Virus record (IMG/VR): IMGVR_UViG_3300025168_000062
Source of the DNA: an uncultured virus (IMG/VR IMGVR_UViG_3300025168_000062)
Taxonomy: Duplodnaviria; Heunggongvirae; Uroviricota; Caudoviricetes
Direction: 5' to 3' (one strand)
Length of the DNA: 20,000 bases
Below, piece by piece: positions 693 to 20,000 of the stretch. A program made the translations under genes and the position numbers. Under the pieces are notes generated by a model. It was given only the letters and a program-made list of their open reading frames with translations. It did no database searches and was not told the origin of the DNA. Numbering within the stretch: the stretch's first letter is position 1; every line of letters starts with the position of its first letter.

Positions 693-694
693 TG

Positions 695-4917: not shown

Positions 4918-4922
4918 GAACT

Positions 4923-5736: not shown

Positions 5737-5768
5737 ATAATTGATGCTAAACCTATTTACTTATAGTC

Positions 5769-5963
5769 TTATTCATAGTCTATTGGTCGCCATTCTGTGT
5801 TTTCACAATCGTCGAGAAAATGTAAGGCGTCTCTTTTTAGGCAATTAGGACAAAAATCTGGTCTAAACTCTGTTATAAGATAAAATTGGTCATAACAGTT
5901 GATACATTCCCAAAGAGTTATAGGTATTTCCTCTTCAATTTCGTCTGTGTTGTATCTACTCGT
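5769..5963 (-). CDS. Zn-ribbon small protein lacking a canonical start (ACG start or degraded gene)
   Basis: Frame reads TSRYNTDEIEEEIPITLWECINCYDQFYLITEFRPDFCPNCLKRDALHFLDDCENTEWRPIDYE*; no in-frame ATG/GTG/TTG. Confidence 0.55.
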   Translation of the reverse strand, partial: TSRYNTDEIEEEIPITLWECINCYDQFYLITEFRPDFCPNCLKRDALHFLDDCENTEWRPIDYE

Positions 5964-6096
5964 GAGAATGCCCCAAGTGGTCCTTTTTAGCCTTATTCTT
6001 AATAAGAGTTTGGTCGCCTTGTTTACTCGACAGGTCGCTATAAAAATTGCTCAAGAACTCTACCGAAATCCACCTACAATAGAGAGAAGAAATGTT

Positions 6097-6324
6097 TCAT
6101 TCCTCTTCCTCTACCGGAAATAATTGTTCAGCCCAAAACTCGAATACAACCCAATTAAGACCTTGCTCAGCATCGTGATGTCGTTCTGCCTGTCTCAAAA
6201 CAGCCATACATTGGTCATCATCTAAGTCCGGTCTTATCGACTTTACGTCGTCTGTATGCCAGAGCACTATTATGCTATTCTTGTCGTTCCAGTGTATGTT
6301 GTCGTATAACTCATTAATTTTCAT
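6097..6324 (-). CDS. Conserved phage hypothetical protein
   Basis: IIVLWHTDDV...RPDLDDDQCMAVL...HDAEQGLNW motif that I recognise from phage hypotheticals; start moved to the ATG overlapping the upstream stop. Confidence 0.75.
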   Translation of the reverse strand: MKINELYDNIHWNDKNSIIVLWHTDDVKSIRPDLDDDQCMAVLRQAERHHDAEQGLNWVVFEFWAEQLFPVEEEE

Positions 6325-6601
6325 CAAACTCGCTCCATTCTTTTTCTGTGAATACGACAACATTACCTAGAGGGTGTTTCTTACCTCCAACATAACTCGG
6401 ATGTTGGAAGCAAAGAGGATTCATAGGCAGACCTTTTAGTATCGCTTCCTCATTTACTAAGGCATTTTCTCCTGTGCTGAGTATCATGTGAGTCACCCAC
6501 CCACCGACTGCTGTTTGGAAATCTCTCATACACAAATACTCCATAGTGCCTAAGTCTTGCTCTACGCCAGTCCATCTCAATAATTTAACCACTCGAATCA
6601 A
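6314..6601 (-). CDS. DUF3846-like protein
   Basis: FQTAVGGWV...LVNEEAILKGLPMNP...GNVVV pattern; start uncertain. Confidence 0.65.
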   Translation of the reverse strand: MIRVVKLLRWTGVEQDLGTMEYLCMRDFQTAVGGWVTHMILSTGENALVNEEAILKGLPMNPLCFQHPSYVGGKKHPLGNVVVFTEKEWSEFDEN

Positions 6602-7217
6602 CCCTCATACCATTACCACACTCAGGACACTTATACTCGTTATAACAATTACCGAGTCTGTTATGCACACTTAAGTCGCATTTACCTTGCTCTGCAAATT
6701 GAGTGCATCCAAAGTAATATAACTCGCATTCACTAGGTCTATAACCTAATACCATAATAACTCCACCTTCTGCTCCATACCACTTACATAATACTCTTTT
6801 AGAAGTTTTGTGTGAGTTGCTACCCCATACTTTATCCCACCAGAGATATAGTATATCATGCTCTTTATCGCCCCAAAGTCGCCAAAGTCTTGCCTCTTCA
6901 TCACTACCTTTTTCTGCAAGTGTCACTCTTTTCTCATCTATATTAGCAAAATTAAGGAGATTATAGTATCTCGCATTTTTATGCAACTCCCAATCAAAAT
7001 CTTCTCCCGTATTCATAATACGCTCCGAAGCGGCCACACTTCTCGCCATTCTTTTGATAGGGTCAACATCATAATCAAGTCTTTCTCTTTCGCTCAGATA
7101 TGCTTTCTCAGTCATTTCGTGCATAGACCTACTATTAGGTGGACCAGCAAAAAGGTCTACCGGCCACATATCATAGTATTTTGGATTTGAGATAGTCTCA
7201 TACCCCATTATTACCAC
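6585..7217 (-). CDS. Hypothetical protein with C-terminal Zn ribbon
   Basis: H...GNCYNEYKCPECG...VDSSG ending; start probably 7205. Confidence 0.75.
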   Translation of the reverse strand: MVIMGYETISNPKYYDMWPVDLFAGPPNSRSMHEMTEKAYLSERERLDYDVDPIKRMARSVAASERIMNTGEDFDWELHKNARYYNLLNFANIDEKRVTLAEKGSDEEARLWRLWGDKEHDILYLWWDKVWGSNSHKTSKRVLCKWYGAEGGVIMVLGYRPSECELYYFGCTQFAEQGKCDLSVHNRLGNCYNEYKCPECGNGMRVDSSG

Positions 7218-7431
7218 CTCTTGAAATAAAAGACCTCAATCTATCTGCGACATCTTTTAGATGAGCCAACTGGACTTTCATACCTCTAATAGCGTCAATA
7301 ATCTCTTCATCAGTAAAAGGCTCAGCATCCTCTAAAAACATCTGGTCTTTTGAGACATAATCCCCTACTTCTTCGTGGACCAAGTGCTTGAACTCTTCAG
7401 AATCTACATGACCAAAAAATATCTTTTCCAT
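7198..7431 (-). CDS. Hypothetical protein
   Basis: Abuts the upstream stop. Confidence 0.7.
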   Translation of the reverse strand: MEKIFFGHVDSEEFKHLVHEEVGDYVSKDQMFLEDAEPFTDEEIIDAIRGMKVQLAHLKDVADRLRSFISRGGNNGV

Positions 7432-7677
7432 TTACTCTTCCTCCTCTTCTTCATCTCCACAATGTTCTCTTAAACTATCCCAATCAATAGTCGTAAAATC
7501 TATTAGGTCTGTGTAAAAGTGGGCTGTTGAGCCATACTCCTTCTTCATCATATCAAGGAACTCATCTTCTATCATTTCCTCTAGATAATCCACATCACTC
7601 GCAGTCTCAGGGTTATACCATAAATTGACGAGCCATGTTGCCCTATTTCTCCAACCATTTACTTCTCTATTACACAT
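7432..7677 (-). CDS. Conserved phage hypothetical (NGWxNxxTWxVNLW family)
   Basis: NGWRNRATWLVNLW motif; GGAG RBS. Confidence 0.75.
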   Translation of the reverse strand: MCNREVNGWRNRATWLVNLWYNPETASDVDYLEEMIEDEFLDMMKKEYGSTAHFYTDLIDFTTIDWDSLREHCGDEEEEEE

Positions 7678-7691
7678 ATTAAATCTCCGTT

Positions 7692-7772
7692 TAGTGCAAG
7701 AGGACTAAGGCTTTGGAGAATACCGGAAAGAATGTCTCTATGGAATGAATGCGCCTCAGCCCCCTTACACTA
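7692..7772 (-). ncRNA. Structured 5' leader / small RNA: 20-bp stem with 41-nt AUUC-repeat loop
   Basis: 7753-7772 pairs with 7692-7711 without bulges; all 4 non-Watson-Crick positions are G-U on the minus strand; begins at the predicted transcription start. Confidence 0.65.
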
Positions 7773-7789
7773 CTTCTAAAAGTTAATAG

Positions 7790-7814
7790 TATATAAATAG
7801 TTCTATCTCTTGAG
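7790..7814 (-). promoter_or_regulatory. CTCNNGAG-N9-TATA promoter
   Basis: CTCAAGAG ATAGAACTA TTTATATA. Confidence 0.85.
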
Positions 7815-7839
7815 TTACCGCAGAAACTCTACCGTATAT

Positions 7840-7995
7840 CTATAATTCTTTTGCTGTCGTCTCAAACAAATTATGAGCGGCACATGATACGCACTCGGGA
7901 TGATTACACACTCTGAATAAGATAGGTTGGTAGACACCATCCTCAAAAGCAACAGGTCTAACATTACAATAGTCGCATACTTCCTCAGAAATCAT
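7840..7995 (-). CDS. Small Zn-finger protein (51 aa)
   Basis: MISEEVCDYC...VCNHPECVSC...; ATGA-coupled. Confidence 0.7.
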   Translation of the reverse strand: MISEEVCDYCNVRPVAFEDGVYQPILFRVCNHPECVSCAAHNLFETTAKEL

Positions 7996-8063
7996 TTCTC
8001 TTCCTCTTTTCTTTCGTCAGGTCGAGGCCAATACGGTTCTGTCCAGTCGGGAATAGGTCTCAT
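7992..8063 (-). CDS. Microprotein (23 aa)
   Basis: MRPIPDWTEPYWPRPDERKEEEK; ATGA overlaps at both ends; GGAGG RBS. Confidence 0.6.
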   Translation of the reverse strand: MRPIPDWTEPYWPRPDERKEEEK

Positions 8064-8122
8064 TCTTCTTCCTCCGTTGGGAGTATCATGTTAATTATAT
8101 CTCTTCCTGTTATTGGGCTCAT
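8060..8122 (-). CDS. Microprotein (20 aa)
   Basis: MSPITGRDIINMILPTEEEE; ATGA overlaps at both ends; GGAGG RBS. Confidence 0.55.
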   Translation of the reverse strand: MSPITGRDIINMILPTEEEE

Positions 8123-9324
8123 TCTTCTTCCTCCATTAATTCTGTTGCTCTTAAAGCACCTAACTCATCAACCATAATACTTCTATCTCCAACTCTTCTT
8201 AGTGCCTCTTCTATACTAATCTCAATGTTTTCGACATTATGTTGCCAAGGTTCGAGAATATAGTTGACCGCTTTCTGTGCTTTTTGAGCGGCCGTCATCA
8301 AAAACTTTGGCTCCTTAGCAAGAACAGTCGCCCAATTGTTGATATACTCAACATTACGAAGTTCTCCTTGAATCTTAAAATTACCTAAGAGAAAGGCTGT
8401 GCCAAACTCTGCAATCAACTCTTCCTTAGCATAATCTTCACTCCCGAATCTATTACCGAGGGCGCGGTTAAGTCGAAGGGGATGACCCGTGCTATGAATA
8501 ATCTCATGTCCTTTGACCGATAGGTAGTTTGCATTATCTTCAAACTGCTCATGAAGAGGAAGTGCTATCCTATCACGACTAGATGTATAAAACGCTCTAT
8601 CACCGCCATGTTTTAACTCTATTTTACCTTTTCTCATAATCCACTGTGCCTCTGTTGCTTTTTGACCGTCAGGCATTATATCTCCGATGGCTTTAGCAAC
8701 TCTATTAGGATTATCGACATAGTAATTAAGACAATTCTCAAGACTTAACTCATTTTCTGCAAACTCATCTGCTGTCAATTCTATCTCTTTCTTAGGGATA
8801 GGAGGAAGTCCTGTCTGGTCACGGTTGAATACCTCGAAAACACGCATCATAAGACTCTGATACATATACTCTTCAGTCTCGCCTGTGGTTTTATTCTTAC
8901 GCTCACCGGCTCTAAGTCCCATTGGTTTGTAGAGAACAATACTCGTGCCTGTCTGACCTTTTTGAACACCATACCACTCTGTGGTGTGTTTGTAGGGCTC
9001 GCCTTTTCTGCTAACTTTTAACTCGAACTTGCCCTCTTTTATTGCGTGTTTTCTCGATTCCTCTTTCCAACCATTATATGTCGCCCAAGTATTAGACTCA
9101 AACTCCATACCGCTCAGCCAAAGTATCAGCGTATTAACTCCACTGTATGGTCTACCTTTCTGATTATGGGGCATAGTATCTCCACCGAGCATCTGCCAGC
9201 CCTTACTCCAACCATTTACTTCACCTTCTCTAATTTTACTAATGAAGTCGGCCGCTAATTTTTCCTCAAACTCTTTACGTTTTTCTTTACTCATACTTCT
9301 TCCGAAGTCTCCGCGCTTTGCCAT
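8119..9324 (-). CDS. ardC: ArdC-family ssDNA-binding anti-restriction protein (DUF1738 plus zincin-like metallopeptidase domain)
   Basis: RPYSGVNTLIL...WATYNGW...VQKG...FEVFNRDQT N-domain; AFY...DRIALP...HEIIHSTGHPLRLNR...FGSEDYAKEELIAE C-domain. Confidence 0.92.
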   Translation of the reverse strand: MAKRGDFGRSMSKEKRKEFEEKLAADFISKIREGEVNGWSKGWQMLGGDTMPHNQKGRPYSGVNTLILWLSGMEFESNTWATYNGWKEESRKHAIKEGKFELKVSRKGEPYKHTTEWYGVQKGQTGTSIVLYKPMGLRAGERKNKTTGETEEYMYQSLMMRVFEVFNRDQTGLPPIPKKEIELTADEFAENELSLENCLNYYVDNPNRVAKAIGDIMPDGQKATEAQWIMRKGKIELKHGGDRAFYTSSRDRIALPLHEQFEDNANYLSVKGHEIIHSTGHPLRLNRALGNRFGSEDYAKEELIAEFGTAFLLGNFKIQGELRNVEYINNWATVLAKEPKFLMTAAQKAQKAVNYILEPWQHNVENIEISIEEALRRVGDRSIMVDELGALRATELMEEEE

Positions 9325-9345
9325 ACTACCTAATCTAAGTCATAG

Positions 9346-9370
9346 GATATAAACCTTTGTTGGTCTTGAG
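9346..9370 (-). promoter_or_regulatory. CTCNNGAG-N9-TATA promoter (variant)
   Basis: CTCAAGAC CAACAAAGG TTTATATC. Confidence 0.8.
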
Positions 9371-9395
9371 ATATATACTATATCTCTACCGTGTT

Positions 9396-9572
9396 TTACT
9401 TAATAGACTTAGAGTATGAGTCAAGAACATATACCTCTTTTACTATCTTGGTTGCTCTAGCACCGCACTCTTTGCATCTGAGATGTTCTATGACCTCCCA
9501 CTTTTTCTGGTCGTAAACAAAACCCTCTAACTCAAGTGCGCATCTATGAATCTCATTTTCTTTTGCTACCAA
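9396..9572 (-). CDS. Small Zn-ribbon protein (58 aa, TTG start)
   Basis: MVAKENEIHRC...LRCKECGA...; GGAGTGA RBS; overlaps the helicase end. Confidence 0.6.
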   Translation of the reverse strand: MVAKENEIHRCALELEGFVYDQKKWEVIEHLRCKECGARATKIVKEVYVLDSYSKSIK

Positions 9573-11169
9573 TCATATCACTCCAAAGGTCAATAGACTT
9601 TCTGCCTGTTCTGGTCAATCTAGGGGAGCAGTGATGCAACGCTCCTTCTTGTCTCAATAACTTATGACACTTCTCGCATATATGTTTTGGTTTCTCAACT
9701 TTTGGTTTTCTCTTAGGTAACTCTGGTTTTTCTTCTTGGCCGACCTTGCGCAATCCTGAACTCGGACTATACTTCCACCACTCGATGGTCCCATCGGGGA
9801 GTTTGCCGCCATATTTGAGATTGACTATACCTTTTTGGTCGGTTGTATTGGGAACGAAGAGAATATACACCACCGCTTGCTCTTTATCGCCTTTTCTGAG
9901 ACAACGACCAAGTGTCTGAACTCTAGCACGAGCGGAATTAGTGCCACTCACCATAATACCTAGGTCGCACGAGGGAACATCTATGCCTTCTCTAAGAGCC
10001 TTGCATGATAATAGAATACTCGAATCACCGTTAGCGAACTCGTCTAGTGCGCGGTCGTTTTCACCTTTGGAACGCTCGCCATGATATATCTCAGGATTTG
10101 TGCCTATCCACTCGGAACAGTCCGGCTCAGGAAGATTAACTTGCTCCCATGTGTGCTCACAATTTGGTATTACCTCGGGACATAAGCCTCGGTATTTATC
10201 GTGCATCCACTCTATCTGCTTGATACGCTCGTGAAATATCATAGTTTTGCTCTGTTCGTGAAGTCTCAGTATTTCATCCACTGCCTCGAATCTGAAATGT
10301 GCCTCATTGACAAGTCTCTTACGCTTCATACATAGGTCTTTGAATGTGGTCAATGCTGAATCGGGGTCATTTGGGTCTTGTCTCAGCGTGAACCAATTAC
10401 TCGAACCGTATCTTTTGCGGAGAACGAATGAGATTCTTCTGATTTGCTGTGTTATCTCGTCATATTCTGACTCTTCAGCACGACTAAGGGGTATAGCAAC
10501 CGCTCTAACCGTGAATGGGATAATAACTCCGTCACTCAAGGCTTGGTCAAACTTGTAATTATACACAATAGGTCCGCAGAGATGTGATACAACGGTCAAA
10601 CCGCTATCTTCTCTAGCAGGAGTTGCACTAAGACCTAGCACCGCAGTATGGTCATTATTACGAATAGCGTATTGTCGGAAATCTGAGCCGATGTTATGGC
10701 ACTCATCAACAACAATGAGATGTGGACCATCCACTTCGGGCAGACCTTTTGCCGCAGTATTCATGGTCACAATAGAGATTTGTCTGAAATCTGCTCTACC
10801 GCCACCAAGCATACCAATTCTCATGTGCGGAAACGCTCTAACCATGTCTCCGCGCCACTGTCTCTGTAAGCCCCTAGTCGGAACAAGCACAGTGACTCTA
10901 CCGGTTGGGTTAGATTGAAGCCAGACCCATATACACTCTGTTGCTGTAAAGGTCTTACCTGCACCGGTCACGGCAGAGATAATACCACGAAACTCTTCAT
11001 CACCGGACAAGTTCTCGCCTGTGCGTGGGTCTTTTGCTATACCAACTCCAGCCCAAGCCTGTATCGCTCCTTCTTGCCATAGATATAGACTCATTTCTTT
11101 GTGGTCTTGATTATGTAACTCTTTTAATCTATCCGAAACTCCGGATGGTAAGTTTTCTCGTTCAATCAT
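9553..11169 (-). CDS. Superfamily 2 DNA helicase, XPB/Rad25 (SSL2)-like, with C-terminal C2H2-like finger
   Basis: Q motif LYLWQ; TGAGKT; VLVPT; DECH; LSATP; LREGIDVP; QTLGRCLR. Confidence 0.92.
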   Translation of the reverse strand: MIERENLPSGVSDRLKELHNQDHKEMSLYLWQEGAIQAWAGVGIAKDPRTGENLSGDEEFRGIISAVTGAGKTFTATECIWVWLQSNPTGRVTVLVPTRGLQRQWRGDMVRAFPHMRIGMLGGGRADFRQISIVTMNTAAKGLPEVDGPHLIVVDECHNIGSDFRQYAIRNNDHTAVLGLSATPAREDSGLTVVSHLCGPIVYNYKFDQALSDGVIIPFTVRAVAIPLSRAEESEYDEITQQIRRISFVLRKRYGSSNWFTLRQDPNDPDSALTTFKDLCMKRKRLVNEAHFRFEAVDEILRLHEQSKTMIFHERIKQIEWMHDKYRGLCPEVIPNCEHTWEQVNLPEPDCSEWIGTNPEIYHGERSKGENDRALDEFANGDSSILLSCKALREGIDVPSCDLGIMVSGTNSARARVQTLGRCLRKGDKEQAVVYILFVPNTTDQKGIVNLKYGGKLPDGTIEWWKYSPSSGLRKVGQEEKPELPKRKPKVEKPKHICEKCHKLLRQEGALHHCSPRLTRTGRKSIDLWSDMIGSKRK

Positions 11170-11720
11170 TCTTCTTCACTCCCTAATTCATCATAGAACT
11201 CGGATTCTTCCCTTCGCTCTTCATCTATACTGAGAAGTATAAGGGCAACTCTTTCAATATCCGAGGGCTTAAGATAAGACACTCCGTTATCGCAGTTCTC
11301 TGGTAAGACCTTAGAACAGGCTAAACTCATGAGTTTCATAGCACCGTATGCCTCCATACGGGCTGACTCATGTCTAGACCACCTCGCGTAAGGATACATC
11401 GCTCCGCCTTTTCTATCTTGAGTCACTTCTGAACGGGTCTTGTAAGATTTCCACTCGGCTGTCTCCGGTATAGCGACCACATATCTATGGTTACTCGGAA
11501 CACCTTGAAACAACTCTGATTTGCGAAAGCCTTGCTCGTTAAGGGCTGAACCCCACTCGTCTTTTTGTTCTTGACTCCATGCCTTATCAGAAGGGTCATA
11601 GAGTTTATAGAAAAGATATTTAGTTTGAGTTATAACATTCTCTTGTTGTCTAATGAGAAAATCCATTGGTTGTGCAGGACCATAATCTGATAGGTCATCT
11701 TCTGCTGTCTCTGTTTTCAT
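11166..11720 (-). CDS. Hypothetical protein
   Basis: ORF ATGA-coupled to the helicase gene. Confidence 0.8.
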   Translation of the reverse strand: MKTETAEDDLSDYGPAQPMDFLIRQQENVITQTKYLFYKLYDPSDKAWSQEQKDEWGSALNEQGFRKSELFQGVPSNHRYVVAIPETAEWKSYKTRSEVTQDRKGGAMYPYARWSRHESARMEAYGAMKLMSLACSKVLPENCDNGVSYLKPSDIERVALILLSIDEERREESEFYDELGSEEE

Positions 11721-11758
11721 TCCGCTTCGCCTCGCATACTACCTAATATTCGTTCTAT

Positions 11759-11783
11759 AATATAAAGTTTTCTAGGTCTGGAG
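11759..11783 (-). promoter_or_regulatory. CTCNNGAG-N9-TATA promoter (variant)
   Basis: CTCCAGAC CTAGAAAAC TTTATATT. Confidence 0.75.
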
Positions 11784-11789
11784 TTAGCC

Positions 11790-12224
11790 TTAATACTCAA
11801 TAGTTTCGACAGCATCATCATCCTCTCCATAGTGGTGGTAGTGGTGGTGTCGTGCTATAAACCCTCCAACCTTAGAAGCAACTCCAATAGCATACGCCTC
11901 ACAGTGAACACATCTCGATATAACAATAGGTTCATTGTAACTCGTCATGCCGTTTTCGACTGTAATAATCTCTGTAGTGTCTACGTCATTGAGGTTGTAG
12001 ACTTTTTGTTGTCTCATCTCGCTATCAACAATAACGACTTCGGGTTCTAGGAAATCTCGTTCTGATTCGCTCAGATTACGCATTTCGTCGGTTGTGATAA
12101 TAGGACGAGTAAAGGTCTTGTTTTTCTGTGCTACCTCTATACCACACGGAGCACAATAGAAATTGTCGTGCGCATATAACTCTACCGGCTTATCACAATC
12201 CTCCTTATTACATCCCAATCTCAT
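11790..12224 (-). CDS. Zn-finger protein with His-rich C-terminus
   Basis: CNKEDC, CAPC, CVHC...HHHYHH; ATG at 12224 after GAGGCGA RBS. Confidence 0.75.
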   Translation of the reverse strand: MRLGCNKEDCDKPVELYAHDNFYCAPCGIEVAQKNKTFTRPIITTDEMRNLSESERDFLEPEVVIVDSEMRQQKVYNLNDVDTTEIITVENGMTSYNEPIVISRCVHCEAYAIGVASKVGGFIARHHHYHHYGEDDDAVETIEY

Positions 12225-12284
12225 ATTATCGCCTCTTTTCTGCACAGCCTCACGCCCGTCATATCTACTATTTGTATTACCTAG

Positions 12285-12309
12285 TTATTAATGGTTTGCA
12301 TCTCTTGAG
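12285..12309 (-). promoter_or_regulatory. CTCNNGAG-N9-TATA promoter
   Basis: CTCAAGAG ATGCAAACC ATTAATAA. Confidence 0.75.
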
Positions 12310-12411
12310 ATATCTAGCGGGACCTGAGACTACCGTCCCTTTTTGGTTTAATTGCGAGCAACGACTGATTTGTGCCTACTCTCTAAAAGAGTAGGATGTA
12401 ATCCGGTAGAA

Positions 12412-12436
12412 CTCAAGAGTCACAAGGGTATATATA
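12412..12436 (+). promoter_or_regulatory. CTCNNGAG-N9-TATA promoter
   Basis: CTCAAGAG TCACAAGGG TATATATA. Confidence 0.85.
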
Positions 12437-12501
12437 CTATGAACATTTATTAGTAGATATGCGAAGCGGAGGAATACGAAACCCGCAGGAGGTGATAATT
12501 T

Positions 12502-12984
12502 ATGAGTAAGCAAACAGAATCAAAAGAGACTGAGAGTAAAGTTAATACAGAAGAGACCGAAGCAGTTCCTCTTCCATCATGGAATAAAGGAGATATAGCA
12601 ACACATGGTCATTCTGAGTATGACTTATTCGGAGTAAACGGCCTTTGGCGAGAAAAAGGGTGCAACGAGATTGGTGGTATGAAAGTGAGAATCTATCTAT
12701 CAGCAAGAGCCGACGCACCTATCTGCAATCGACCTGACAAACATACAGTCGTTATCACCGGAGTTCATGAAAGTGGTAAAACAGACCTAAATGTGAGTAA
12801 ACTTCAGAAGCATGGAGCAGCCAACCGTAAGGAGGCACTCAAACTAGCGAGGCACCCTGCAACATGGAGCAAGAAAGCACAAGTCATAGTCGATAAGATT
12901 GCTGAGGCCAAAGCGAAAGCAGAGGAAGCAGCAAAAGCAGAGACAGAGTCAAAAGAATCTATCAAAGAAACGGTAGAGGCTTAG
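12502..12984 (+). CDS. Hypothetical protein, probably highly expressed; possible nucleic-acid binder
   Basis: Perfect GGAGGTGAT RBS; K/E/A-rich termini with repeated ETESK. Confidence 0.85.
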   Translation: MSKQTESKETESKVNTEETEAVPLPSWNKGDIATHGHSEYDLFGVNGLWREKGCNEIGGMKVRIYLSARADAPICNRPDKHTVVITGVHESGKTDLNVSKLQKHGAANRKEALKLARHPATWSKKAQVIVDKIAEAKAKAEEAAKAETESKESIKETVEA

Positions 12985-12989
12985 GCACG

Positions 12990-13425
12990 AGCACATTGGG
13001 ATAGGAGACCAGATTCACAATTCAAAAACTCCTATTCCATAACTCAGCCCTGTGTGGGTGGCTCCGCCCCCACGATAGCAGGAGAACAGGCAGAAAGAGC
13101 CGAAAAGCCGCGCCATAGAGCGGTGATGGTGGAGTAAACATTAAGGAGGCGAGTCTACATAAACAGGTGGTAGACCAAACCGTAACCGAGCCGCACACTA
13201 AACTCTTCTTGAGTAAAAGGGCTACCCGAGTATCTTGGGAGACGTTCATTGAAAGAGACAGAAATGTAACGAGAAAGTGAGACTAAAACAGGCGGTAATA
13301 AGTCGGATAAGCCTCCACCTAATACTCCTTTTGGGAGGTCAAGGAGAAATGCTGGGTAGGCATACTGCAACCGACCTTCCACCTTTCTTCTCTCAAGGGG
13401 CGGGAGACGAGAACCCCTACCTTTG
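12990..13425 (+). ncRNA. Candidate large structured ncRNA (~440 nt), family not recognised
   Basis: No credible ORF; nested and local stems containing G-U pairs on the + strand (see findings). Confidence 0.55.
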
Positions 13426-13432
13426 TAATTAA

Positions 13433-13492
13433 CGGTAGAGCAAAAATAAGAATTGCTCACCCTTGTAAGAGAGAATGACGATATCTCTACCG
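13433..13492. terminator. Convergent junction with inverted pair of CGGTAGAG motifs
   Basis: CGGTAGAG at 13433-13440 (+) and 13485-13492 (-). Confidence 0.45.
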
Positions 13493-13513
13493 CCAAACTT
13501 TTAGGTTTGGTTC

Positions 13514-14689
13514 TCAATAATGACCCGGTTCACCATAGCAACTCCAACAGTCTCTATCGCTACCCGGAGCTCCGCTACCACCATACTGTTCAGTCGTATA
13601 GCAGGAGCATTGGCGAGCAACTTCTTCTGTGCTCATACCTGCAAATAATGGTTGACCTATTAAATCAACTCCACCAACAGGGTAATCTCCATGCTCTTGG
13701 CCTTTACGCTCACTTCCACATCTCATACAAGTATAATACTCACTTGTAGCATGAACAGGAGCACCACGCATCTCTTGATACCCACGCTCGTAATATGTTC
13801 TCACGGCTAATCTATTTTGACCATGTTGGTCGCAATCGAAACAAGTCGCATATTTATTACCACTCTTAGGTCTACCGTAAATAGCATCCACTATTTGCTC
13901 ATCCTCTAACATCTTCCACTCGAAAGGTTTCTCTAACTTATGTGTTTTGAGACAATAGTGTTTGAGCTCAAGGCTTTTCCAGTCGTCGTTATGCGCAGGT
14001 CTTATATCCTTTGTCTCTACCTTAACCATAACATTTCTCAAGAAATATACGACTTTATCAAAGGCCTCTATCTTAGTATCTCGAACATATTTGTATCTGC
14101 TCCAATCTTCGAGGTATTCATCTTCCTCTTTGAAAGGGTCTTTCTTAGCATGAGCAAAGGTAAGACCATACTTTAAGTCCTTCTCTTTAGGCTGTAATCT
14201 CTTTGCTATCTCCATCGAATATGTAGTCGCCCAATAAGACTCTAAATCCAACTCTTTTTGATATTCTTCTCTAAATACTAGAGTTCCGTATGGACCACCA
14301 AGCGGTGTATGACCACGACTAGGCATATGTTTTACTCTTTCTAAGAAAGACTCGTATCTTACGACCCAAGCCTTCTCATCCTCGCAATCATGCTTATCTG
14401 AGATAAAACTATTGCTTCCGTCGTGATTCTGACATATCTCGTATAGTTCTCTTAATATTGAGAAACCTTCACCAAAGAGCTCGAATACATGAGCCCACTT
14501 TTCTTTGAACTCTTCATTGAATGTAGTCGCCATAACGTGTTCTCTATCCCACATCTCTTGTTTTATGAGTGCTAGGAACTCATCCACATTATCATGACCA
14601 AGTTTAAGCATCTCATCCGACACATCTTTTATCGCAAGGGTCATAGCCTCTTTATCCGAGTAAGGTATTAATTCTCTTTTATCTGACAT
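13514..14689 (-). CDS. Hypothetical protein with C-terminal Cys motifs
   Basis: 391-aa ORF; GGGGTGAT RBS; CFDC, CMRC, CSC, CWSC. Confidence 0.85.
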   Translation of the reverse strand: MSDKRELIPYSDKEAMTLAIKDVSDEMLKLGHDNVDEFLALIKQEMWDREHVMATTFNEEFKEKWAHVFELFGEGFSILRELYEICQNHDGSNSFISDKHDCEDEKAWVVRYESFLERVKHMPSRGHTPLGGPYGTLVFREEYQKELDLESYWATTYSMEIAKRLQPKEKDLKYGLTFAHAKKDPFKEEDEYLEDWSRYKYVRDTKIEAFDKVVYFLRNVMVKVETKDIRPAHNDDWKSLELKHYCLKTHKLEKPFEWKMLEDEQIVDAIYGRPKSGNKYATCFDCDQHGQNRLAVRTYYERGYQEMRGAPVHATSEYYTCMRCGSERKGQEHGDYPVGGVDLIGQPLFAGMSTEEVARQCSCYTTEQYGGSGAPGSDRDCWSCYGEPGHY

Positions 14690-14816
14690 TCTCTATCACC
14701 CCCTCGAAGTTTCAGGTCTGTCATCCTATCGTTCCTCCTACTGAGAGGTAATGCCCCCTGCGAGTTCCCCATACCCCGCAGAGGATTTTCGTAATTCCGC
14801 TCGCCGCTCTGGACAA

Positions 14817-15494
14817 TCAATCTCTAAGGAATGATGTGTCGCAGATACGGTGAGATACAACGCTAAGGTCAGTCTTACAGTCAAGACCATAATCGTTCTC
14901 GTCTGTGCAGGTCATGCTTCTTACTGTGCTCATAACTATATCGTGGTAGCCTTTGATTGCTCCATCGACTTCTGGTCCGCCCAAGTCTGAACCTGAGTCA
15001 CCTATGACCGATATTACTGCAACTCCTAGCCTGAAGTCGATTGAATCAAGTGTTACTCTATCATCAACCCAGTCGGGTGTCTCATCCCATCCGAAGTGCT
15101 CGTATAGGTTAAGTGGCTCTATTGTTGCCATCTCTTCCTTAGTCGTATCAACTATCTCAACATCACTTTGGTCAATTAACAGTGGTAGTAAGGCCTCTTT
15201 GAACCATTCTAACTCACCTCGTAAGAAGGTGGTCACAGTATCGTCTCCGATACGCAAACCTTGTGTGCTCACATACTTTGTTGTCTCATTACCAACATCT
15301 CCATCGTGCTCACCAATCCAACCATTTCTCTGCATCTGAAACCCGAAGGTCGCATTGATGCTCTTAAGGAAGAACTCGCTTGCAGGTGTCTTCTCTTCTT
15401 TGGTGTCTCCACCTAAAGGAGTAAAGTTAATTGTTACTCTGCGTCTAGCATCTCTTTCCGTTTCTTGCTCTATTGTTTTTATATTTTCACTCAT
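14817..15494 (-). CDS. Hypothetical acidic protein
   Basis: 225-aa ORF downstream of a motif promoter. Confidence 0.85.
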   Translation of the reverse strand: MSENIKTIEQETERDARRRVTINFTPLGGDTKEEKTPASEFFLKSINATFGFQMQRNGWIGEHDGDVGNETTKYVSTQGLRIGDDTVTTFLRGELEWFKEALLPLLIDQSDVEIVDTTKEEMATIEPLNLYEHFGWDETPDWVDDRVTLDSIDFRLGVAVISVIGDSGSDLGGPEVDGAIKGYHDIVMSTVRSMTCTDENDYGLDCKTDLSVVSHRICDTSFLRD

Positions 15495-15546
15495 ATTCTA
15501 TGACATCTCCTCGGCTTCCGCCTACACTACCACATTATAGTTCTAG

Positions 15547-15571
15547 TATATAAATAGTTCTGACTCTTGAG
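15547..15571 (-). promoter_or_regulatory. CTCNNGAG-N9-TATA promoter (divergent pair, left)
   Basis: CTCAAGAG TCAGAACTA TTTATATA. Confidence 0.85.
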
Positions 15572-15589
15572 TTATTAAAATAGGTATCG

Positions 15590-15614
15590 CTCAAGAGTCC
15601 ACAATCTTTATATG
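15590..15614 (+). promoter_or_regulatory. CTCNNGAG-N9-TATA promoter (divergent pair, right)
   Basis: CTCAAGAG TCCACAATC TTTATATG. Confidence 0.85.
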
Positions 15615-15635
15615 TAAAGACGTAAATTGGTAGAT

Positions 15636-15719
15636 ATGGCGGCCGTTGGAGGACTTATGCGATTAAGAGTTCGTATTATGACTGAGAAATGGTGCTATGA
15701 GGAGTGGGATTACCTATGA
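15636..15719 (+). CDS. Microprotein (27 aa; 20 aa from ATG 15657)
   Basis: MAAVGGLMRLRVRIMTEKWCYEEWDYL; leaderless position 29 nt from TATA. Confidence 0.55.
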   Translation: MAAVGGLMRLRVRIMTEKWCYEEWDYL

Positions 15720-15787
15720 CCGATATACACAAAGAGATACTTGCGTGGAGAGCGCATATGAAAAAGGAGAGGCTTGCTAATGACTGA
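15716..15787 (+). CDS. Microprotein (23 aa)
   Basis: MTDIHKEILAWRAHMKKERLAND; ATGA overlap. Confidence 0.55.
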   Translation: MTDIHKEILAWRAHMKKERLAND

Positions 15788-15863
15788 GTTCACACTATTA
15801 GACCATTATTATCTGAGAAGATTTGGTTTGACCAAGGAGGAATATGAAAATGCTAACGACTGA
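15780..15863 (+). CDS. Microprotein (27 aa)
   Basis: MTEFTLLDHYYLRRFGLTKEEYENAND; GGAGAGG RBS; overlaps the previous stop. Confidence 0.6.
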   Translation: MTEFTLLDHYYLRRFGLTKEEYENAND

Positions 15864-16017
15864 AATAAGAGAAGAAGTCTATGACGAGTTATCCAAAGAT
15901 GACGGAGTTAGAGTTTTTAACTGCGGACCAAAGTTTCTTGCATACTGTCGAGCAAAGCATATAGATGTAGTCGAACTTTTTGAGGCGGCGGGTGTTTTGA
16001 GTGACGAAGAAGAGTAA
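15850..16017 (+). CDS. Small hypothetical protein (55 aa)
   Basis: MLTTEIREEVYDEL...GVLSDEEE; GGAGG RBS. Confidence 0.65.
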   Translation: MLTTEIREEVYDELSKDDGVRVFNCGPKFLAYCRAKHIDVVELFEAAGVLSDEEE

Positions 16018-16384
16018 GAATCTTAAGTGCTCAATCTGCAAGAAAGAGATAAGAGGACCTAAGCATCCTTTTACTGAGCAATTATTATTCGATGAGGGTG
16101 AGTATATGGGTAATAATCCCGCTCCCTTCGATTCAACTCGTAATAAGCGAGTGTGCGATATGTGCGACAGCGTATATGTTCTCCCTGCGAGAATGGGTTA
16201 TGATGTATTCTCAGAAGATTGGGAGAAGCGCACCGAGTCATTTAGATTTGGTATGAGAATGTGGAAATCACGACTGAAAGCGAGAAAACTGATGTATGAG
16301 ATGGGTTTCGACAAACCATCTCCAATTTACATCGACAAGGATGACCCTACACAACAATTAGACCCGACAGGAAAGCCAATATGA
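16001..16384 (+). CDS. Zn-binding phage hypothetical protein
   Basis: CSIC...GNNPAP...VCDMCDSVYVLPAR motif. Confidence 0.8.
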   Translation: MTKKSKNLKCSICKKEIRGPKHPFTEQLLFDEGEYMGNNPAPFDSTRNKRVCDMCDSVYVLPARMGYDVFSEDWEKRTESFRFGMRMWKSRLKARKLMYEMGFDKPSPIYIDKDDPTQQLDPTGKPI

Positions 16385-16417
16385 CGGTAGAGTGGGGCGG
16401 GAGAAATATCTCTACCG
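16385..16417. terminator. Convergent junction with inverted pair of CGGTAGAG motifs
   Basis: CGGTAGAG at 16385-16392 (+) and 16410-16417 (-). Confidence 0.45.
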
Positions 16418-16507
16418 CCTTTTAGGTATATGCCGAGCACTGAGACATGTAGATATGCAGAGAAACTGCATCGAGAGGATTTACGCTCTTTAAGTATTCT
16501 CAATGTT

Positions 16508-16789
16508 TCAATCCCTTACTCCAACTTCATACTCAGATACTTGCTCTTCTAAGCACTCTTGGCACATGAGAATCCAGTGTCTCTCATTTGGATATGCGTT
16601 TCTCCATGAGTCTGGTAATATAAGGAGCCTTAGATATACGGGCTCTTGATAGTTCTCATCCCCACCTTCATGCTCTTGTGGAAAACGAGAACCTATCTGA
16701 CTAACTCCACATGATTGACATTTCTCTGTGTCCGACCTATCGTCTAACAACTCTTCATCTCCAACCTTGTTAGGACTCATTCTTTCCAT
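16508..16789 (-). CDS. Zn-finger hypothetical protein
   Basis: CQSC...CQEC; start probably 16780 (ATGA overlap). Confidence 0.75.
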   Translation of the reverse strand: MERMSPNKVGDEELLDDRSDTEKCQSCGVSQIGSRFPQEHEGGDENYQEPVYLRLLILPDSWRNAYPNERHWILMCQECLEEQVSEYEVGVRD

Positions 16790-17202
16790 GACTCCTTTAC
16801 AATATCCGTCATCTCTTCATCATTCTCAATTAAGCACTCAGGACATAGAAAATATATTTCTCTAAAAGCATTAGAGATTAGGACAGTATTCTCATCCTTA
16901 TGTTCTCCACAGTTCTCGCATTTATTCTCTTGAAATCTCCCAATTATCTTATGATATCTCGGAAGTGATAATACTCGCCTATCTATTCTCCCATGATGTA
17001 ATGACTCTGATTGTTCGAGACATTTCGGACAGAAGGGAGCAAACGTGCAGTTATCTCCTATCTTTGCTCCTTGTCTATATCTCACAATCATCGAGTTTAC
17101 GTCATAAAGACCTATCATACAGTCTCTATTTTTACATCTCGCTATTACGCTGTCTCCGTTATGCTTCGCTCCGTTAGTTTGCATCTCTTTTTCTATCCAC
17201 AT
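16777..17202 (-). CDS. Double Zn-finger hypothetical protein
   Basis: CKNRDC, CPKC, CENC, CPEC. Confidence 0.75.
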   Translation of the reverse strand: MWIEKEMQTNGAKHNGDSVIARCKNRDCMIGLYDVNSMIVRYRQGAKIGDNCTFAPFCPKCLEQSESLHHGRIDRRVLSLPRYHKIIGRFQENKCENCGEHKDENTVLISNAFREIYFLCPECLIENDEEMTDIVKESWKE

Positions 17203-17205
17203 TTC

Positions 17206-17325
17206 TCATTCACATCTCCATATATTATGGCACATCTCGCATAGTTTCAATACTCTTTTAGTTTCTTTCTCGTCAATCCAATGAGTCCACGTTCCACACG
17301 AGCAACCATCACAAATCTCTTTCAC
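17206..17325 (-). CDS. Small Cys-rich protein (39 aa, GTG start)
   Basis: MKEICDGCSCGTWTHWIDEKETKRVLKLCEMCHNIWRCE. Confidence 0.55.
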   Translation of the reverse strand: MKEICDGCSCGTWTHWIDEKETKRVLKLCEMCHNIWRCE

Positions 17326-17353
17326 TTCCCATAACCTCTCATCAGCGTCATAT

Positions 17354-17378
17354 GATATAAAGATTTCCCACTCACGAG
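17354..17378 (-). promoter_or_regulatory. CTCNNGAG-N9-TATA promoter (divergent pair, left)
   Basis: CTCGTGAG TGGGAAATC TTTATATC. Confidence 0.85.
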
Positions 17379-17385
17379 ACATAGG

Positions 17386-17410
17386 CTCAAGAGTCAGAAA
17401 AGTTTATATC
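17386..17410 (+). promoter_or_regulatory. CTCNNGAG-N9-TATA promoter (divergent pair, right)
   Basis: CTCAAGAG TCAGAAAAG TTTATATC. Confidence 0.85.
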
Positions 17411-17449
17411 TGATTACTTAAATGAGGTAGTGCCGGAAGGCGGAGGATA

Positions 17450-17902
17450 ATGATTAATATGAGAACAGTAATGCAGAGAAATATACCAGAGAAATACCTT
17501 AACGAGTGGGGTTATCCGAAATCGGAGCACTTCAAGTCTCACCATAGACTCGCACCACTCTACGAGTCACGATGGGAGCCAATCCCACGTGAGAATTACC
17601 ACAGAACGACTTGCCGTGAATGCGGAGTTCTTGGTTCAGAGCATGGCCTTTGGCGAGCAGTTGAATATGTTACGCTAGAGAATGCTCCCGGATGGGAGTT
17701 AGCCCATGTGAGATGCTTTGATTGCGGAGACAATCTTGTTGGAAACGAGCCTTGTGAAGAGTGCATGGGTTGGAAAGAGCCCAAAGCATCGAGACACCTT
17801 ATTGAAGAGCCATCTGATGAAGAGATGGAAGAACTAAAAAGAGAAGGACTAATCGGAGCAGATGCGGTTGACCTATTTTGTCATTGTGAGGAAGAAGAAT
17901 GA
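17450..17902 (+). CDS. Zn-finger hypothetical protein
   Basis: CREC, CFDC, CEEC; GGAGG RBS. Confidence 0.8.
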   Translation: MINMRTVMQRNIPEKYLNEWGYPKSEHFKSHHRLAPLYESRWEPIPRENYHRTTCRECGVLGSEHGLWRAVEYVTLENAPGWELAHVRCFDCGDNLVGNEPCEECMGWKEPKASRHLIEEPSDEEMEELKREGLIGADAVDLFCHCEEEE

Positions 17903-18000
17903 GTAAAGGTCAACGATGTATGGAGTGTGTTGGTGAGGGTAAATGGTGCTACTGGTCACGAATGCTGAGTTGTGATAGAGACGGGGCTGACCAGCCTTAA
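17899..18000 (+). CDS. Cys-rich microprotein (33 aa)
   Basis: MSKGQRCMECVGEGKWCYWSRMLSCDRDGADQP; ATGA overlap. Confidence 0.55.
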   Translation: MSKGQRCMECVGEGKWCYWSRMLSCDRDGADQP

Positions 18001-18067
18001 GCAACTCCTTTTATGTCATAACCGAGCGATTTTTTGGTCTACCGTATTATCCACTATTTCGGGAGCG

Positions 18068-18092
18068 CTCGTGAGTTAGAAACCTTTATATC
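18068..18092 (+). promoter_or_regulatory. CTCNNGAG-N9-TATA promoter
   Basis: CTCGTGAG TTAGAAACC TTTATATC. Confidence 0.85.
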
Positions 18093-18133
18093 TGATGACG
18101 ATGATGAGGTAGTGCCGGAAAGGAGGCCTAAAA

Positions 18134-18808
18134 ATGACAATGAGAAATATAGACGCAGAGACAGAAGAAAGAGATATACAAGAGACCCTTGTAAATCGTG
18201 AGTGGCTTCCGCTAGGAGCCATGAATGGAGTTAGAGTGATAACAGAATACCGAGAAGGTGTTTCTGCTGGCTCTAATTACATCAATCTCACATATAATGA
18301 TTGGGAGTCAAGAGAAGTGGCAACATACCTCAGGGAGAAATGCCATGTATCTGACCCAGACTTGGAGCAGAAAATTGAGTGTAAGAAACAGACACTCAAT
18401 GATTCGACCCACATGGGAGATATGAGATTTTTAGCACGAGATACAGGGTGTAAGAGTGGGTGGTTCAATAGAGCCAATGACAGAGCCTATTTAGTGAGAT
18501 ACACGTCAAGCCGAGTGTATCTTGGACCACAAGAGGGTGGCACTTGGGGGACCCATAGGATGCCTAGAGCAGTTATGGTTTTCCGAGATTACCAAACAGC
18601 CGAGAAAGTTAAGAAATACCTCAAAGAGATAAACAAGGAACATTTCGAGCCAGATTGGAAGTCTCTAGGGCATGACGAGACAGTTAGTTCGACTTACCCC
18701 GAGGGATTCATTCCGAGTATGTGGGTTGGCTCTAAAGAGACAACATATATTGTTGAGCCTGTTATTGGGATGGGCTCTATTGATACGAGTAATTGGCATT
18801 ACGAGTGA
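18134..18808 (+). CDS. Hypothetical protein
   Basis: 224-aa ORF; GGAGG RBS. Confidence 0.85.
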   Translation: MTMRNIDAETEERDIQETLVNREWLPLGAMNGVRVITEYREGVSAGSNYINLTYNDWESREVATYLREKCHVSDPDLEQKIECKKQTLNDSTHMGDMRFLARDTGCKSGWFNRANDRAYLVRYTSSRVYLGPQEGGTWGTHRMPRAVMVFRDYQTAEKVKKYLKEINKEHFEPDWKSLGHDETVSSTYPEGFIPSMWVGSKETTYIVEPVIGMGSIDTSNWHYE

Positions 18809-19254
18809 TTATTATGAGTTACGAGCGAAACAAGAATACCGACTGGGCTCAAAGATGGCAGAGCGAACTGCATAGAGATACAAGAGAGTTTGTATCTTTG
18901 AGTAAGTTGCAGGAGATATTCAGTAATGAGTATGATAGACTCCACAGAAGCGACGAATCAAGCGAGTTTGTTAGAGGCTTTATGAACATGAGCAAAGAAC
19001 AATGGGAGTCATGGGAAGGAGATAGTCATGGCGACCCTGACCTTTACATATACCAAGAGAACCACAATAGAGCGAAGCGCAACACGACCAACCAAGTATA
19101 TGAGTTGTATTGGTCAGCGTATGAGAAACAGCAAGAAAATATTACGGTAGAGCCAATTGTTGCGAGCGATAATGTTGATGACCTAGTTTCCCAAATGGAG
19201 AAAGCCTGCGAGCAAGCATTTGAATCTCGCTTATATGGTCAAACCAGAAATTGA
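18793..19254 (+). CDS. Hypothetical protein
   Basis: ORF; true start probably GTG 18805 or ATG 18814. Confidence 0.8.
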   Translation: MALRVIIMSYERNKNTDWAQRWQSELHRDTREFVSLSKLQEIFSNEYDRLHRSDESSEFVRGFMNMSKEQWESWEGDSHGDPDLYIYQENHNRAKRNTTNQVYELYWSAYEKQQENITVEPIVASDNVDDLVSQMEKACEQAFESRLYGQTRN

Positions 19255-19345
19255 GAGACGGGGCGGAGAGATAAAGTAAGCATCTCTTTCTGCACAGGCG
19301 ACCAACCACGTTTCTCTATCCTCTCAGCATGATTTAACAGGAGCG

Positions 19346-19370
19346 CTCGTGAGTCACAAGGGTTTATATA
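19346..19370 (+). promoter_or_regulatory. CTCNNGAG-N9-TATA promoter
   Basis: CTCGTGAG TCACAAGGG TTTATATA. Confidence 0.85.
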
Positions 19371-19417
19371 GTAAAACGAACATAGAGAGGTAGGCGGGAA
19401 GCCAAAGGAGAAATGAT

Positions 19418-19816
19418 ATGACGAGAAAAAGAATAAGCGAGATGAATGAAGAAGAGCTCAAGGAGAAATATGACATATTGGTCGAAGCATTGACCAATGA
19501 GATGGGTGGTGAGTATTTACCAAGACTCACCGATATGCGAGAAGAACTCGGATATACTGGTCTGGAATATGTTCACGACCCTGGTCATGAATGGGATGAA
19601 TTGAGCAAAGAGACAAGGGCGGCACTCAACGTGGCTGGTCTTGAATATGGGATGGTCATGCAAGACGAACTCGATATAACCGACCTAAACATTGGGTCGT
19701 TTCAACTGAGTATTGAGTCAGGGCATTGGTGGCTCACGGCCGCGAGATGTTATCTGTATGAACTCACAGGTCAGATGGATTGGAGAAAGGTTATCCGAGA
19801 ATCCGACCCGTATTAA
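19418..19816 (+). CDS. Hypothetical acidic protein
   Basis: 132-aa ORF; GGAG RBS. Confidence 0.85.
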   Translation: MTRKRISEMNEEELKEKYDILVEALTNEMGGEYLPRLTDMREELGYTGLEYVHDPGHEWDELSKETRAALNVAGLEYGMVMQDELDITDLNIGSFQLSIESGHWWLTAARCYLYELTGQMDWRKVIRESDPY

Positions 19817-19834
19817 TTGAGCACACAGGCGGGA

Positions 19835-19856
19835 GAGCCGCAAGGGGCTCCTTTTT
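19835..19856 (+). terminator. Hairpin plus oligo-T terminator candidate
   Basis: GAGCC-gcaagg-GGCTC followed by CTTTTT after the gene end. Confidence 0.45.
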
Positions 19857-19900
19857 AATACCCCCGAGCCATAAAATGCTCTCTCAAGAGATACAGAGTT

Positions 19901-19925
19901 CTCAAGAGTCAGAATACTTTATATA
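19901..19925 (+). promoter_or_regulatory. CTCNNGAG-N9-TATA promoter
   Basis: CTCAAGAG TCAGAATAC TTTATATA; extra CTCAAGAG at 19883-19890. Confidence 0.85.
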
Positions 19926-20000
19926 GTTAAACCCCGATGAGGGAGTAGCGGCGGAAGCCGAGGAAAGGTGTAAATGAGAAATGAAATTGAGAAGTAATGA

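Follow-up and report, generated by a model that had tools for sequence, protein, structure and literature searches.

In the 20,000-nucleotide (nt) stretch analysed here, which comes from the uncultured virus record IMGVR_UViG_3300025168_000062 and is called the window below, positions 12985 to about 13430 of the plus strand encode a conserved, highly structured RNA, for which a fold with two H-type pseudoknots and a three-way junction is predicted. The RNA directly follows an orphan gene for a protein of 160 amino acids (aa) (12502..12984, plus strand), which makes up the upstream half of the transcription unit and has no match in Pfam or PHROG. Judged from the surrounding signals, it is the 3' part of the transcript of this gene, which would run from a TATA-type promoter to a hairpin with a T-tract. 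An earlier reading of the DNA (the original prediction) had proposed for this place an ornate viral RNA, absent from the catalogues, that shares its transcript with the 160-aa gene, and this is supported by covariation, by conserved loci, and by contigs from RNA libraries that run into the RNA. Four of the stems proposed at that time hold and about half of the pairings were wrong, the fold being built instead on the two pseudoknots and the junction.

Conservation in related loci

Six loci were compared: the window, L017 (a 76-kb metagenome contig of the window's clade), L001 (a 75-kb viral contig), L008 and L009 (a third clade, clade C), and L018. Since L018 is identical to L009 over the RNA, five of the loci are distinct, and they fall into three clades. 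The same order of promoter motif, leader hairpin, small gene, non-coding stretch, and convergent gene is common to all six. In the five distinct loci an architecture of variable 5' hairpin, pseudoknot A, three-way junction, pseudoknot B, and 3' hairpin with T-tract is kept, and the RNA is 330-450 nt long depending on the virus. Conservation and covariation in homologous loci, which the original prediction had named as a check on itself, were both found.

The RNA is present in 5/5 distinct loci that carry the 160-aa gene, and no true RNA match was found without the gene. A looser pattern of RNA blocks, run over viral contigs, gave three true loci and four matches in unrelated coding sequence (L011, L012, L015, and L016), and the block pattern gave two true matches in metagenome contigs; in a genome collection there were zero matches with either the RNA pattern or the protein profile. 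Two exact 20-24-mers scanned over the viral contigs occurred in the L001 contig only, and blastn of 12300-13560 against phage and plasmid records returned nothing. The RNA is found as a single copy per genome: a 100%-complete relative (75,290 bases) has one place for it, and the rest of the window's own genome (record G001, described below) holds no second copy.

Predicted fold and covariation

Window coordinates are used throughout and equal the local numbering of the RNA plus 12984. In eight helices all 249 of 249 cells are standard pairs, compared with 37-50% when the partners are slid, and 11 of the 54 pair positions in these helices and a weak outer stem are altered on both sides. Directly after the stop codon lies H1, a hairpin of 11 base pairs (bp) (12997-13007/13029-13039) that had been part of the original prediction; L017, L001, L008, and L009 all have a hairpin at this place, each of unrelated sequence.

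The stem-loop of pseudoknot A (13049..13082) comprises an outer stem (13049-52/13079-82), an inner stem (13053-58/13069-74), and a loop (13059-68), with a 5-7-bp stem bearing the invariant 10-nt loop UGGCUCCGYC. All cells of the inner stem are paired (100%), and both partners differ in 3/7 of its pairs; in the weaker outer stem (CCUG/CAGG) 90% of cells are paired. The second stem is formed by the 3' strand GGTGGAGT (13128..13135) and the loop bases 13061-13068. Its 8 pairs are paired in 100% of cells, with a single pair changed on both sides; the series C-G / U-A / U.G occurs at one pair. For pseudoknot A as a whole, in the MAFFT alignment, 92/94 cells are standard pairs against 39-53% with slid partners, 5/19 pairs are altered on both sides, and 0/500 column shuffles reach the covariation score. 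RNAalifold pairs the strand GRYGGAG with the 3' strand of the terminator (columns 110-116 with 410-417), with the same purine-pyrimidine covariation. Since this strand covaries with the pseudoknot loop and with the 3'-end strand alike, it has two candidate partners, and it may pair with one of them or with both in turn. Between the two parts of pseudoknot A lies a variable insertion (13083..13127) with two small hairpins, a feature of the window and L017 clade only; the two hairpins of L017 are of other sequence, and L001, L008, and L009 have none in this region.

The three-way-junction domain (13145..13316) is closed by H4 (GGAGGC/GCCUCC, 13145-50/13311-16) and contains H5 (13153-58/13170-75), H6 (13186-89/13303-06), and H7 (13190-94/13292-96), the last two being linked via a 6-nt bulge. 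H5, already proposed as GTCTAC/GTAGAC, is kept and reads GGCTAC/GTAGTC in clade C. H7 is GCCGC/GCGGU in two clades, GGUGU/GCACC in L008, and GAUGU/GCAUC in L009. Because MAFFT misaligned clade C in the central domain, H6 and H7 were aligned by coordinates, and on this basis 105/105 cells of the junction domain are paired, compared with 27-49% when slid; 3/21 pairs are altered on both sides (H5 pair 2, H7 pairs 2 and 3) and 4 on one side. In the junction interior (13195-13291) and for a small hairpin inside pseudoknot B, no pairing consistent across the clades was found.

Pseudoknot B (13325..13383) consists of S1 (CUCCUU/AAGGAG, 13325-30/13341-46), S2 (GGGAGGTC/GACCTTCC, 13333-40/13373-80), and a conserved ACC (13381-83). 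S2 had been among the stems of the original prediction and carries two covarying pairs; with one more in S1, 3/14 pairs are altered on both sides. All cells (70/70) are paired, against 44-59% with slid partners, and 1/500 shuffles reaches the covariation score. A second ACC stands at 13317-19, right after H4. Pseudoknots A and B share one layout: the first stem has 6-7 bp, the first loop 2 nt, and the second stem 8 bp, and a spacer is missing. In both of them the two stems each have compensatory change, the criterion for an H-type pseudoknot.

At the 3' end (13387..13431) the window can form either CUUCUCUC/GAGACGAG (13387-94/13404-11) or AGGGG/CCCCU (13396-400/13414-18), followed by the T-rich CCTTTGTAATT. 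The latter hairpin had been suggested as the closing element of the RNA; it exists in the window, whereas the relatives have a different hairpin with a T-tract there. From the sequences alone, RNAalifold recovers the stem-loop of pseudoknot A (both inner and outer stems), H4, H5, the second stem of pseudoknot B, and the 3' hairpin.

Of the other pairings once proposed, a nested long-range trio (AGCCCT/AGGGCT, GTGT/ACAC, and GTGGCTC/GAGCCGC) is complementary in the window but is not kept in the relatives: L001 has lost AGGGCT and L017 carries an uncompensated change in it, clade C has letters that are not complementary where the window has GAGCCGC, and the bases of the trio fall in better supported helices. 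CGCCAT/ATGGTG and CCCGAG/CTTGGG lie in window-specific insertions, and ACTC/GAGT in a variable region. The threefold AACAGG that had been remarked on is real in the window, but only the first copy (as CAGG) is kept in clade C.

The octamer CGGTAGAG, which had been read as an end motif, has 13 copies against 0.38 expected; it occurs genome-wide and is not a mark of the RNA end. Its sites lie both within and between genes (e.g. 6058, 7827, 9384, 12180, 12971, 13433, 13485, 16385, and 16410), and inverted pairs of it form gene-end hairpins (13433/13485 and 16385/16410). Another sequence, GGGGCGGGAGA, is found in the loops of end-of-gene hairpins in the window (13397-13407 and 16394-16404) and upstream of the promoter of the small gene in clade C (L008 2731, L009 2719, L018 3417). 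Rather than belonging to the RNA core, it may represent a common module for termination or protein binding.

Several points weigh against the reading of this stretch as a conserved structured RNA. The helices were picked by eye on the same sequences on which they were tested, with the central domain aligned by hand, and this circularity gives them an advantage over the slid controls. The covariation comes from five distinct sequences in three clades and therefore rests on few independent events. While the RNA core has 84.7% DNA identity to L001 and the gene 68.4%, the values against clade C are 65.1% and 65.2%, i.e. the RNA is no better conserved than the gene. The fold energy of the window gives z = -2.54 on the plus strand (1/100 shuffles) and +0.16 on the minus strand, but the two strands score alike in L001 (-2.20 and -2.03) and L008 (-1.49 and -2.34). 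Therefore, fold energy alone is not decisive, and it is the covariation that decides.

The stretch might also act as DNA (an origin, a packaging site, or a protein-binding site), or its helices might be a by-product of a bias towards GAG/CTC, with no RNA function. It sits in the replication and early module, GAG/CTC is about 2-fold enriched from ~6000 onward, and since GAG pairs with CUC, some helices could arise from this word bias. The covarying positions, however, are mostly outside the GAG/CUC cores, and the G.U-specific pairing described below means nothing in duplex DNA. Neither direct repeats nor iterons came to light when the stretch was read through. In addition, one whole base pair has been lost as two matching 1-nt gaps and hairpins have been swapped for unrelated hairpins, which point to RNA. 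A DNA-level explanation is considered highly improbable.

Coding capacity of the gap

The RNA occupies most of a 529-nt space (12985-13513) between the 160-aa gene and a convergent coding sequence (13514..14689, minus strand, 391 aa), whose protein, like its upstream neighbour, has no match in Pfam or PHROG. The G+C content of the RNA stretch is 49-50%, compared with 41% for the window. The space without a credible open reading frame (ORF) that had first drawn attention to this place is real: it holds three mechanical ORFs, two on the minus strand (13022..13249, 75 codons; 13155..13517, 120 codons) and one on the plus strand (13277..13432, 51 codons), none of which is conserved in the relatives. 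Conserved coding genes on the minus strand had been named as a finding that would speak against the RNA, and they were not found. Read-through from the stop codon of the 160-aa gene was considered and dropped, as in-frame stops come after it.

A missed protein-coding gene on either strand could be suspected, since the minus strand of the window, L017, and L001 stays open over stretches of up to 96-102 codons. However, an alignment of the minus-strand ORFs between the window and L001 extends over 34 residues only, exactly where the DNA is near-identical, and an all-against-all comparison in six frames gives short similarities in all six, confined to near-identical DNA, with frames switching between relatives. 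Close relatives are separated by 1-nt and 2-nt indels within the RNA stretch, there is no family match, and no single frame is both open and similar across the relatives, as a coding gene would be. Such a gene is scarcely credible here.

The orphan proteins encoded at 13514..14689 and 11790..12245 (both minus strand) have cysteine-rich, zinc-ribbon-like tails with CxxC pairs and no family match. The early block also encodes an ArdC-like anti-restriction protein with a metallopeptidase domain and a superfamily 2 helicase (8119..9324 and 9553..11169, minus strand).

Strand and transcription unit

The 23 G.U cells among the 249 paired cells fit the plus strand only, as the minus strand would have A.C mismatches in their place, and the RNA is therefore assigned to the plus strand. 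The orientation of the upstream promoter motif agrees with this. Over the RNA, GAG exceeds CTC on the plus strand at 4/4 loci (19:8, 18:9, 13:7, and 15:9), as in plus-strand genes. Along the window, GAG/CTC words are at 1.5-2.5x the expected frequency from ~6000 to 20000 and at 0.6-0.9x before ~6000, and from ~6000 to 20000 GAG lies always on the sense strand of the local transcription unit.

Upstream of the 160-aa gene, on the plus strand, lies the viral promoter motif AACTCAAGAGTCA with a TATA-like box at 12429-12436 (12410..12437 together), which recurs before gene blocks. A promoter-like motif of this kind (AACTCAAGAGTCAGAAC, then a TATA-like box) stands before five of them, at 7804 (minus), 12410 (plus), 15561 (minus), 17384 (plus), and 19899 (plus). 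It gives 7 matches at <=2 mismatches, compared with 1.44 expected, a number reached by 0/200 shuffles. About 25 nt past the promoter copies there are GGTAGTG-like letters, followed by a leader in which a small hairpin of the GNRA type and a strong ribosome-binding site can be seen. In the leader of the 160-aa gene, a hairpin GCGG-loop-CCGC (12466-12486) and a Shine-Dalgarno-like AGGAGGTGA (12487-12495) can be read; the relatives have CGGG/CCCG at that place, and similar leaders follow other promoter copies. The recurrent motif looks like an archaeal-type viral promoter family.

Contigs from 4/4 metatranscriptome runs, from four studies and all close to L017, cover the 160-aa gene. One of them (X23) can be traced back to the equivalent of ~12457, the earliest readable start, ~25 nt past the TATA-like box, which is no proof of a start. 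An archaeal TATA box lies ~25 nt before the transcription start, and such a transcription unit ends in oligo-T. Contig X19 aligns from 12476, a few bases into the contig, and so begins near 12470; no RNA-library contig extends upstream of the promoter. Two contigs (339 nt and 588 nt), from two runs, continue from the gene into the RNA, and a further one, from run X19, spans 13148-13292 with a 19-nt insertion at 13236. This insertion implies that natural variants differ in the peripheral region that also differs among the window, L017, and L001. The cover by these contigs omits 13312-13430. On the other side, contigs are blind to strand, ends, and level, and DNA carry-over is possible. Plus-strand expression, another check that had been named in advance, comes out in favour of the RNA in so far as the contigs reach into it; the strand is not readable from them. 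As evidence of expression they give moderate support.

At the 3' end, terminator-like hairpins with T-tracts are called on the plus strand of L001, where two mutually exclusive 3' hairpins share one strand. No terminator-like site is called at the 3' end of the RNA in the window, and the T-tract that follows the RNA in L001, L008, and L009 is weaker there.

It may be asked whether such an RNA has any life apart from its messenger. As a cis-acting element of the 3' untranslated region, the folded tail would shield the 160-aa mRNA from 3' exonucleases, and its alternative 3' pairings might set termination or read-through toward the convergent gene. The RNA follows the gene without a break, and contigs from RNA libraries span the boundary between them; no promoter motif is found in the window between the stop codon of the 160-aa gene and the RNA. 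The two 3' hairpins of L001 that exclude each other, and the choice of GRYGGAG between a loop and a terminator partner, would also suit such an element. Against this, two pseudoknots, a three-way junction, and invariant single-stranded blocks far exceed what a stabiliser usually needs, and the other transcription units of the virus end in simple hairpins. A cis-acting role is regarded as possible, if somewhat doubtful.

Comparison with known RNA families

None of the 4227 models of Rfam 15 matches anywhere in the window at the gathering thresholds, in line with the expectation, put down earlier together with the proposal of an Rfam search, that the RNA would belong to no known family. At E <=10, with 12200-13700 and the RNA alone (window, L008, and L001) as queries, only chance-level matches appear, the best scores being 17.7 bits for ctRNA_p42d (threshold 50) and 16.6 bits for Rhodo-rpoB (threshold 33.6). 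The models of RNase P RNA, signal recognition particle RNA, and 6S RNA give no match at E <=10 with the three representatives, and neither do those of the ribozymes related to hepatitis delta virus (HDV-like), hammerhead, twister, pistol, and hatchet. ARAGORN finds 0 genes for tRNA or transfer-messenger RNA (tmRNA) in the window, and no T-arm precedes either ACC. A tmRNA tag frame, H/ACA and C/D boxes, and a kink-turn were considered by eye and dropped. Words resembling the conserved regions of RNase P are absent in clade C, and a CsrA-type GGA sponge was rejected, as the GGA words are mostly within stems.

No account of this RNA was found in the literature; it may be among the unnamed candidates of PMC10690425, whose large supplements fell outside the search. 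The number of candidate RNAs that it describes from viral contigs is 10,006. On these comparisons the element is taken to be a real, uncatalogued, multi-domain viral RNA.

A self-processing ribozyme that cuts itself from the transcript has also been weighed. Small ribozymes typically contain pseudoknots whose loops have invariant nucleotides. However, no ribozyme family matches at E <=10, and one strand of the second stem of pseudoknot A lies in the apical loop, not between the stems, a strand order unlike that of HDV-like ribozymes. Self-cleavage is very improbable, and even jointly the ribozyme, the DNA-level element, and the missed coding gene are unlikely to account for the stretch.

The 160-aa protein and possible roles of the RNA

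The family of the 160-aa protein comprises five clusters among 5.8 billion proteins, with identities of 93, 93, 68, 69, and 55%. A full HMMER pass over 1.84 billion representatives gave 2 family representatives and adds P0009 (E 2e-21), the most distant protein relative, which is absent from the viral contigs scanned; tblastn of the protein against phages gave no match. Its core (residues 23-132) has an isoelectric point (pI) of 9.66, with acidic tails on either side.

A dedicated RNA-protein pair is tentatively put forward as the role of the RNA. It would be the working partner of the protein encoded directly upstream: the basic core could bind the folded RNA while both arise from one transcript, a virus-specific ribonucleoprotein would form early in infection, and the RNA would possibly be trimmed out of the mRNA tail. 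The grounds for favouring a ribonucleoprotein are circumstantial, being the co-occurrence in 5/5 distinct loci and the pI of 9.7 of the protein core. Any function would have to fit an invariant loop and single-stranded blocks, variable peripheral hairpins, and two G+C-rich helices each followed by ACC. On the other hand, profile searches of Pfam, PHROG, and PDB found no RNA-binding domain in the protein, the structure model reaches a predicted local distance difference test (pLDDT) score of only 37, and an Atlas search gave no usable match. In the PDB search Rop alone came up (E 0.55), which was taken as noise from helical composition. The co-occurrence count, moreover, omits the loci of P0008 and P0009, the most distant protein relatives.

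The two ACC sites suggest another role, in which the RNA is a decoy or substrate for host RNA machinery. Its G+C-rich helices, starting with GG and followed by single-stranded ACC, would imitate tRNA acceptor ends, so that host tRNA-processing enzymes cut it, extend it, or are soaked up by it, in the service of RNA maturation, host takeover, or the blunting of an RNA-targeting defence. In 5/5 sequences H4 and the second stem of pseudoknot B are each followed by ACC, the pseudoknot builds the helix beside the second ACC in a manner analogous to viral tRNA-like structures, and a G.U wobble is found at the third pair of pseudoknot B (window and L017) and of H4 (L001). This wobble is missing from clade C at both helices, however; the base after ACC is U or C and not A, and both ACC sites are internal. 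ARAGORN's lack of a tRNA or tmRNA, the missing T-arm, and the silence of the Rfam models for tRNA, tmRNA, and RNase P at E <=10 also speak against it. A decoy is on the whole unlikely.

The ribonucleoprotein and the acceptor-end mimicry can be joined in one scheme for a marine archaeal virus: host tRNA enzymes would release the double-pseudoknot RNA at its two acceptor-end mimics, the virus's own basic protein would load onto it, and a conserved host RNA machine would be captured or redirected early in infection. This combined scheme is speculative and quite unlikely as a whole.

To our knowledge, hardly any work exists on structured RNAs in archaeal viruses, and no culture system exists for the marine ones. 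An RNA of 330-450 nt, with signs of expression in the ocean, and a 160-aa protein form a clonable handle, since in-vitro production of the two would open the way to probing, binding, and structural studies. If a ribonucleoprotein or a tRNA-end mimic is true, the pair would show how such viruses engage host RNA machinery; even if the RNA does no more than stabilise the transcript, the catalogues gain a new RNA family. It is also a warning that 'gaps' in such genomes are often RNA genes.

The virus and its probable host

The nearest record, G001, is 100% identical to the window over 1-4611 and 17427-20000 and lacks 4612-17426, a 12.8-kb early region; its own ends correspond to window positions 17427 and 4611. 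From the identity at both ends of the window it follows that the two belong to the same genome of ~75 kb, and the missing early region perhaps reflects an assembly break in a variable region. The virus has genes for a large terminase, a portal, a tape measure, and collagen-like fibres, and for replication a family B polymerase, an RFC-like clamp loader, and an ERCC4 nuclease. The best cultured matches of the polymerase are haloarchaeal tailed viruses (E 4e-43, the best at 24% identity), compared with E 7e-20 for the best bacterial phage listed, at identities of only 22-24%; the terminase has <=24% identity to anything cultured. The archaeal-type replication genes, the polymerase matches, and the TATA-type promoters together favour an archaeal host. 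It is a ~75-kb marine tailed virus that probably infects archaea, and the RNA is probably part of its early programme.

Comparison with known systems

Like the GOLLD, ROOL, and HEARO RNAs of phages (PMC2864571; bioRxiv 10.1101/2024.12.08.627333), the present RNA is virus-borne, ornate, and multi-domain, with pseudoknots and conservation by covariation. In contrast to them it is smaller (330-450 nt) and has no Rfam 15 match above chance even at E <=10; it forms the 3' end of an mRNA, a single orphan protein goes with it, and the virus that carries it has genes of archaeal type.

In viral tRNA-like structures, a pseudoknot builds the helix at the acceptor end. With these structures and with tmRNA the present RNA has in common an H-type pseudoknot that builds or adjoins a G+C-rich helix, followed by single-stranded ACC (for the former see PMC8127992 and PMC10870377). 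However, its ACC is internal, it has no T-arm, tag frame, or terminal A, and it belongs to a DNA virus; therefore the defining features of tRNA-like structures and tmRNA are lacking.

The leader pseudoknot of T4 gene 32 is the translational operator of a phage replication gene. Operators of this type resemble the present case in being pseudoknotted RNA in an untranslated part of an early mRNA, putatively bound by the encoded protein; csRNAs near GP32 are the subject of a section of PMC10690425. Whereas those of the T4 gene 32 type are short 5' leaders, the RNA described here extends over >300 nt at the 3' end of its transcript, is multi-domain, and may be bound by the protein that the same transcript encodes.

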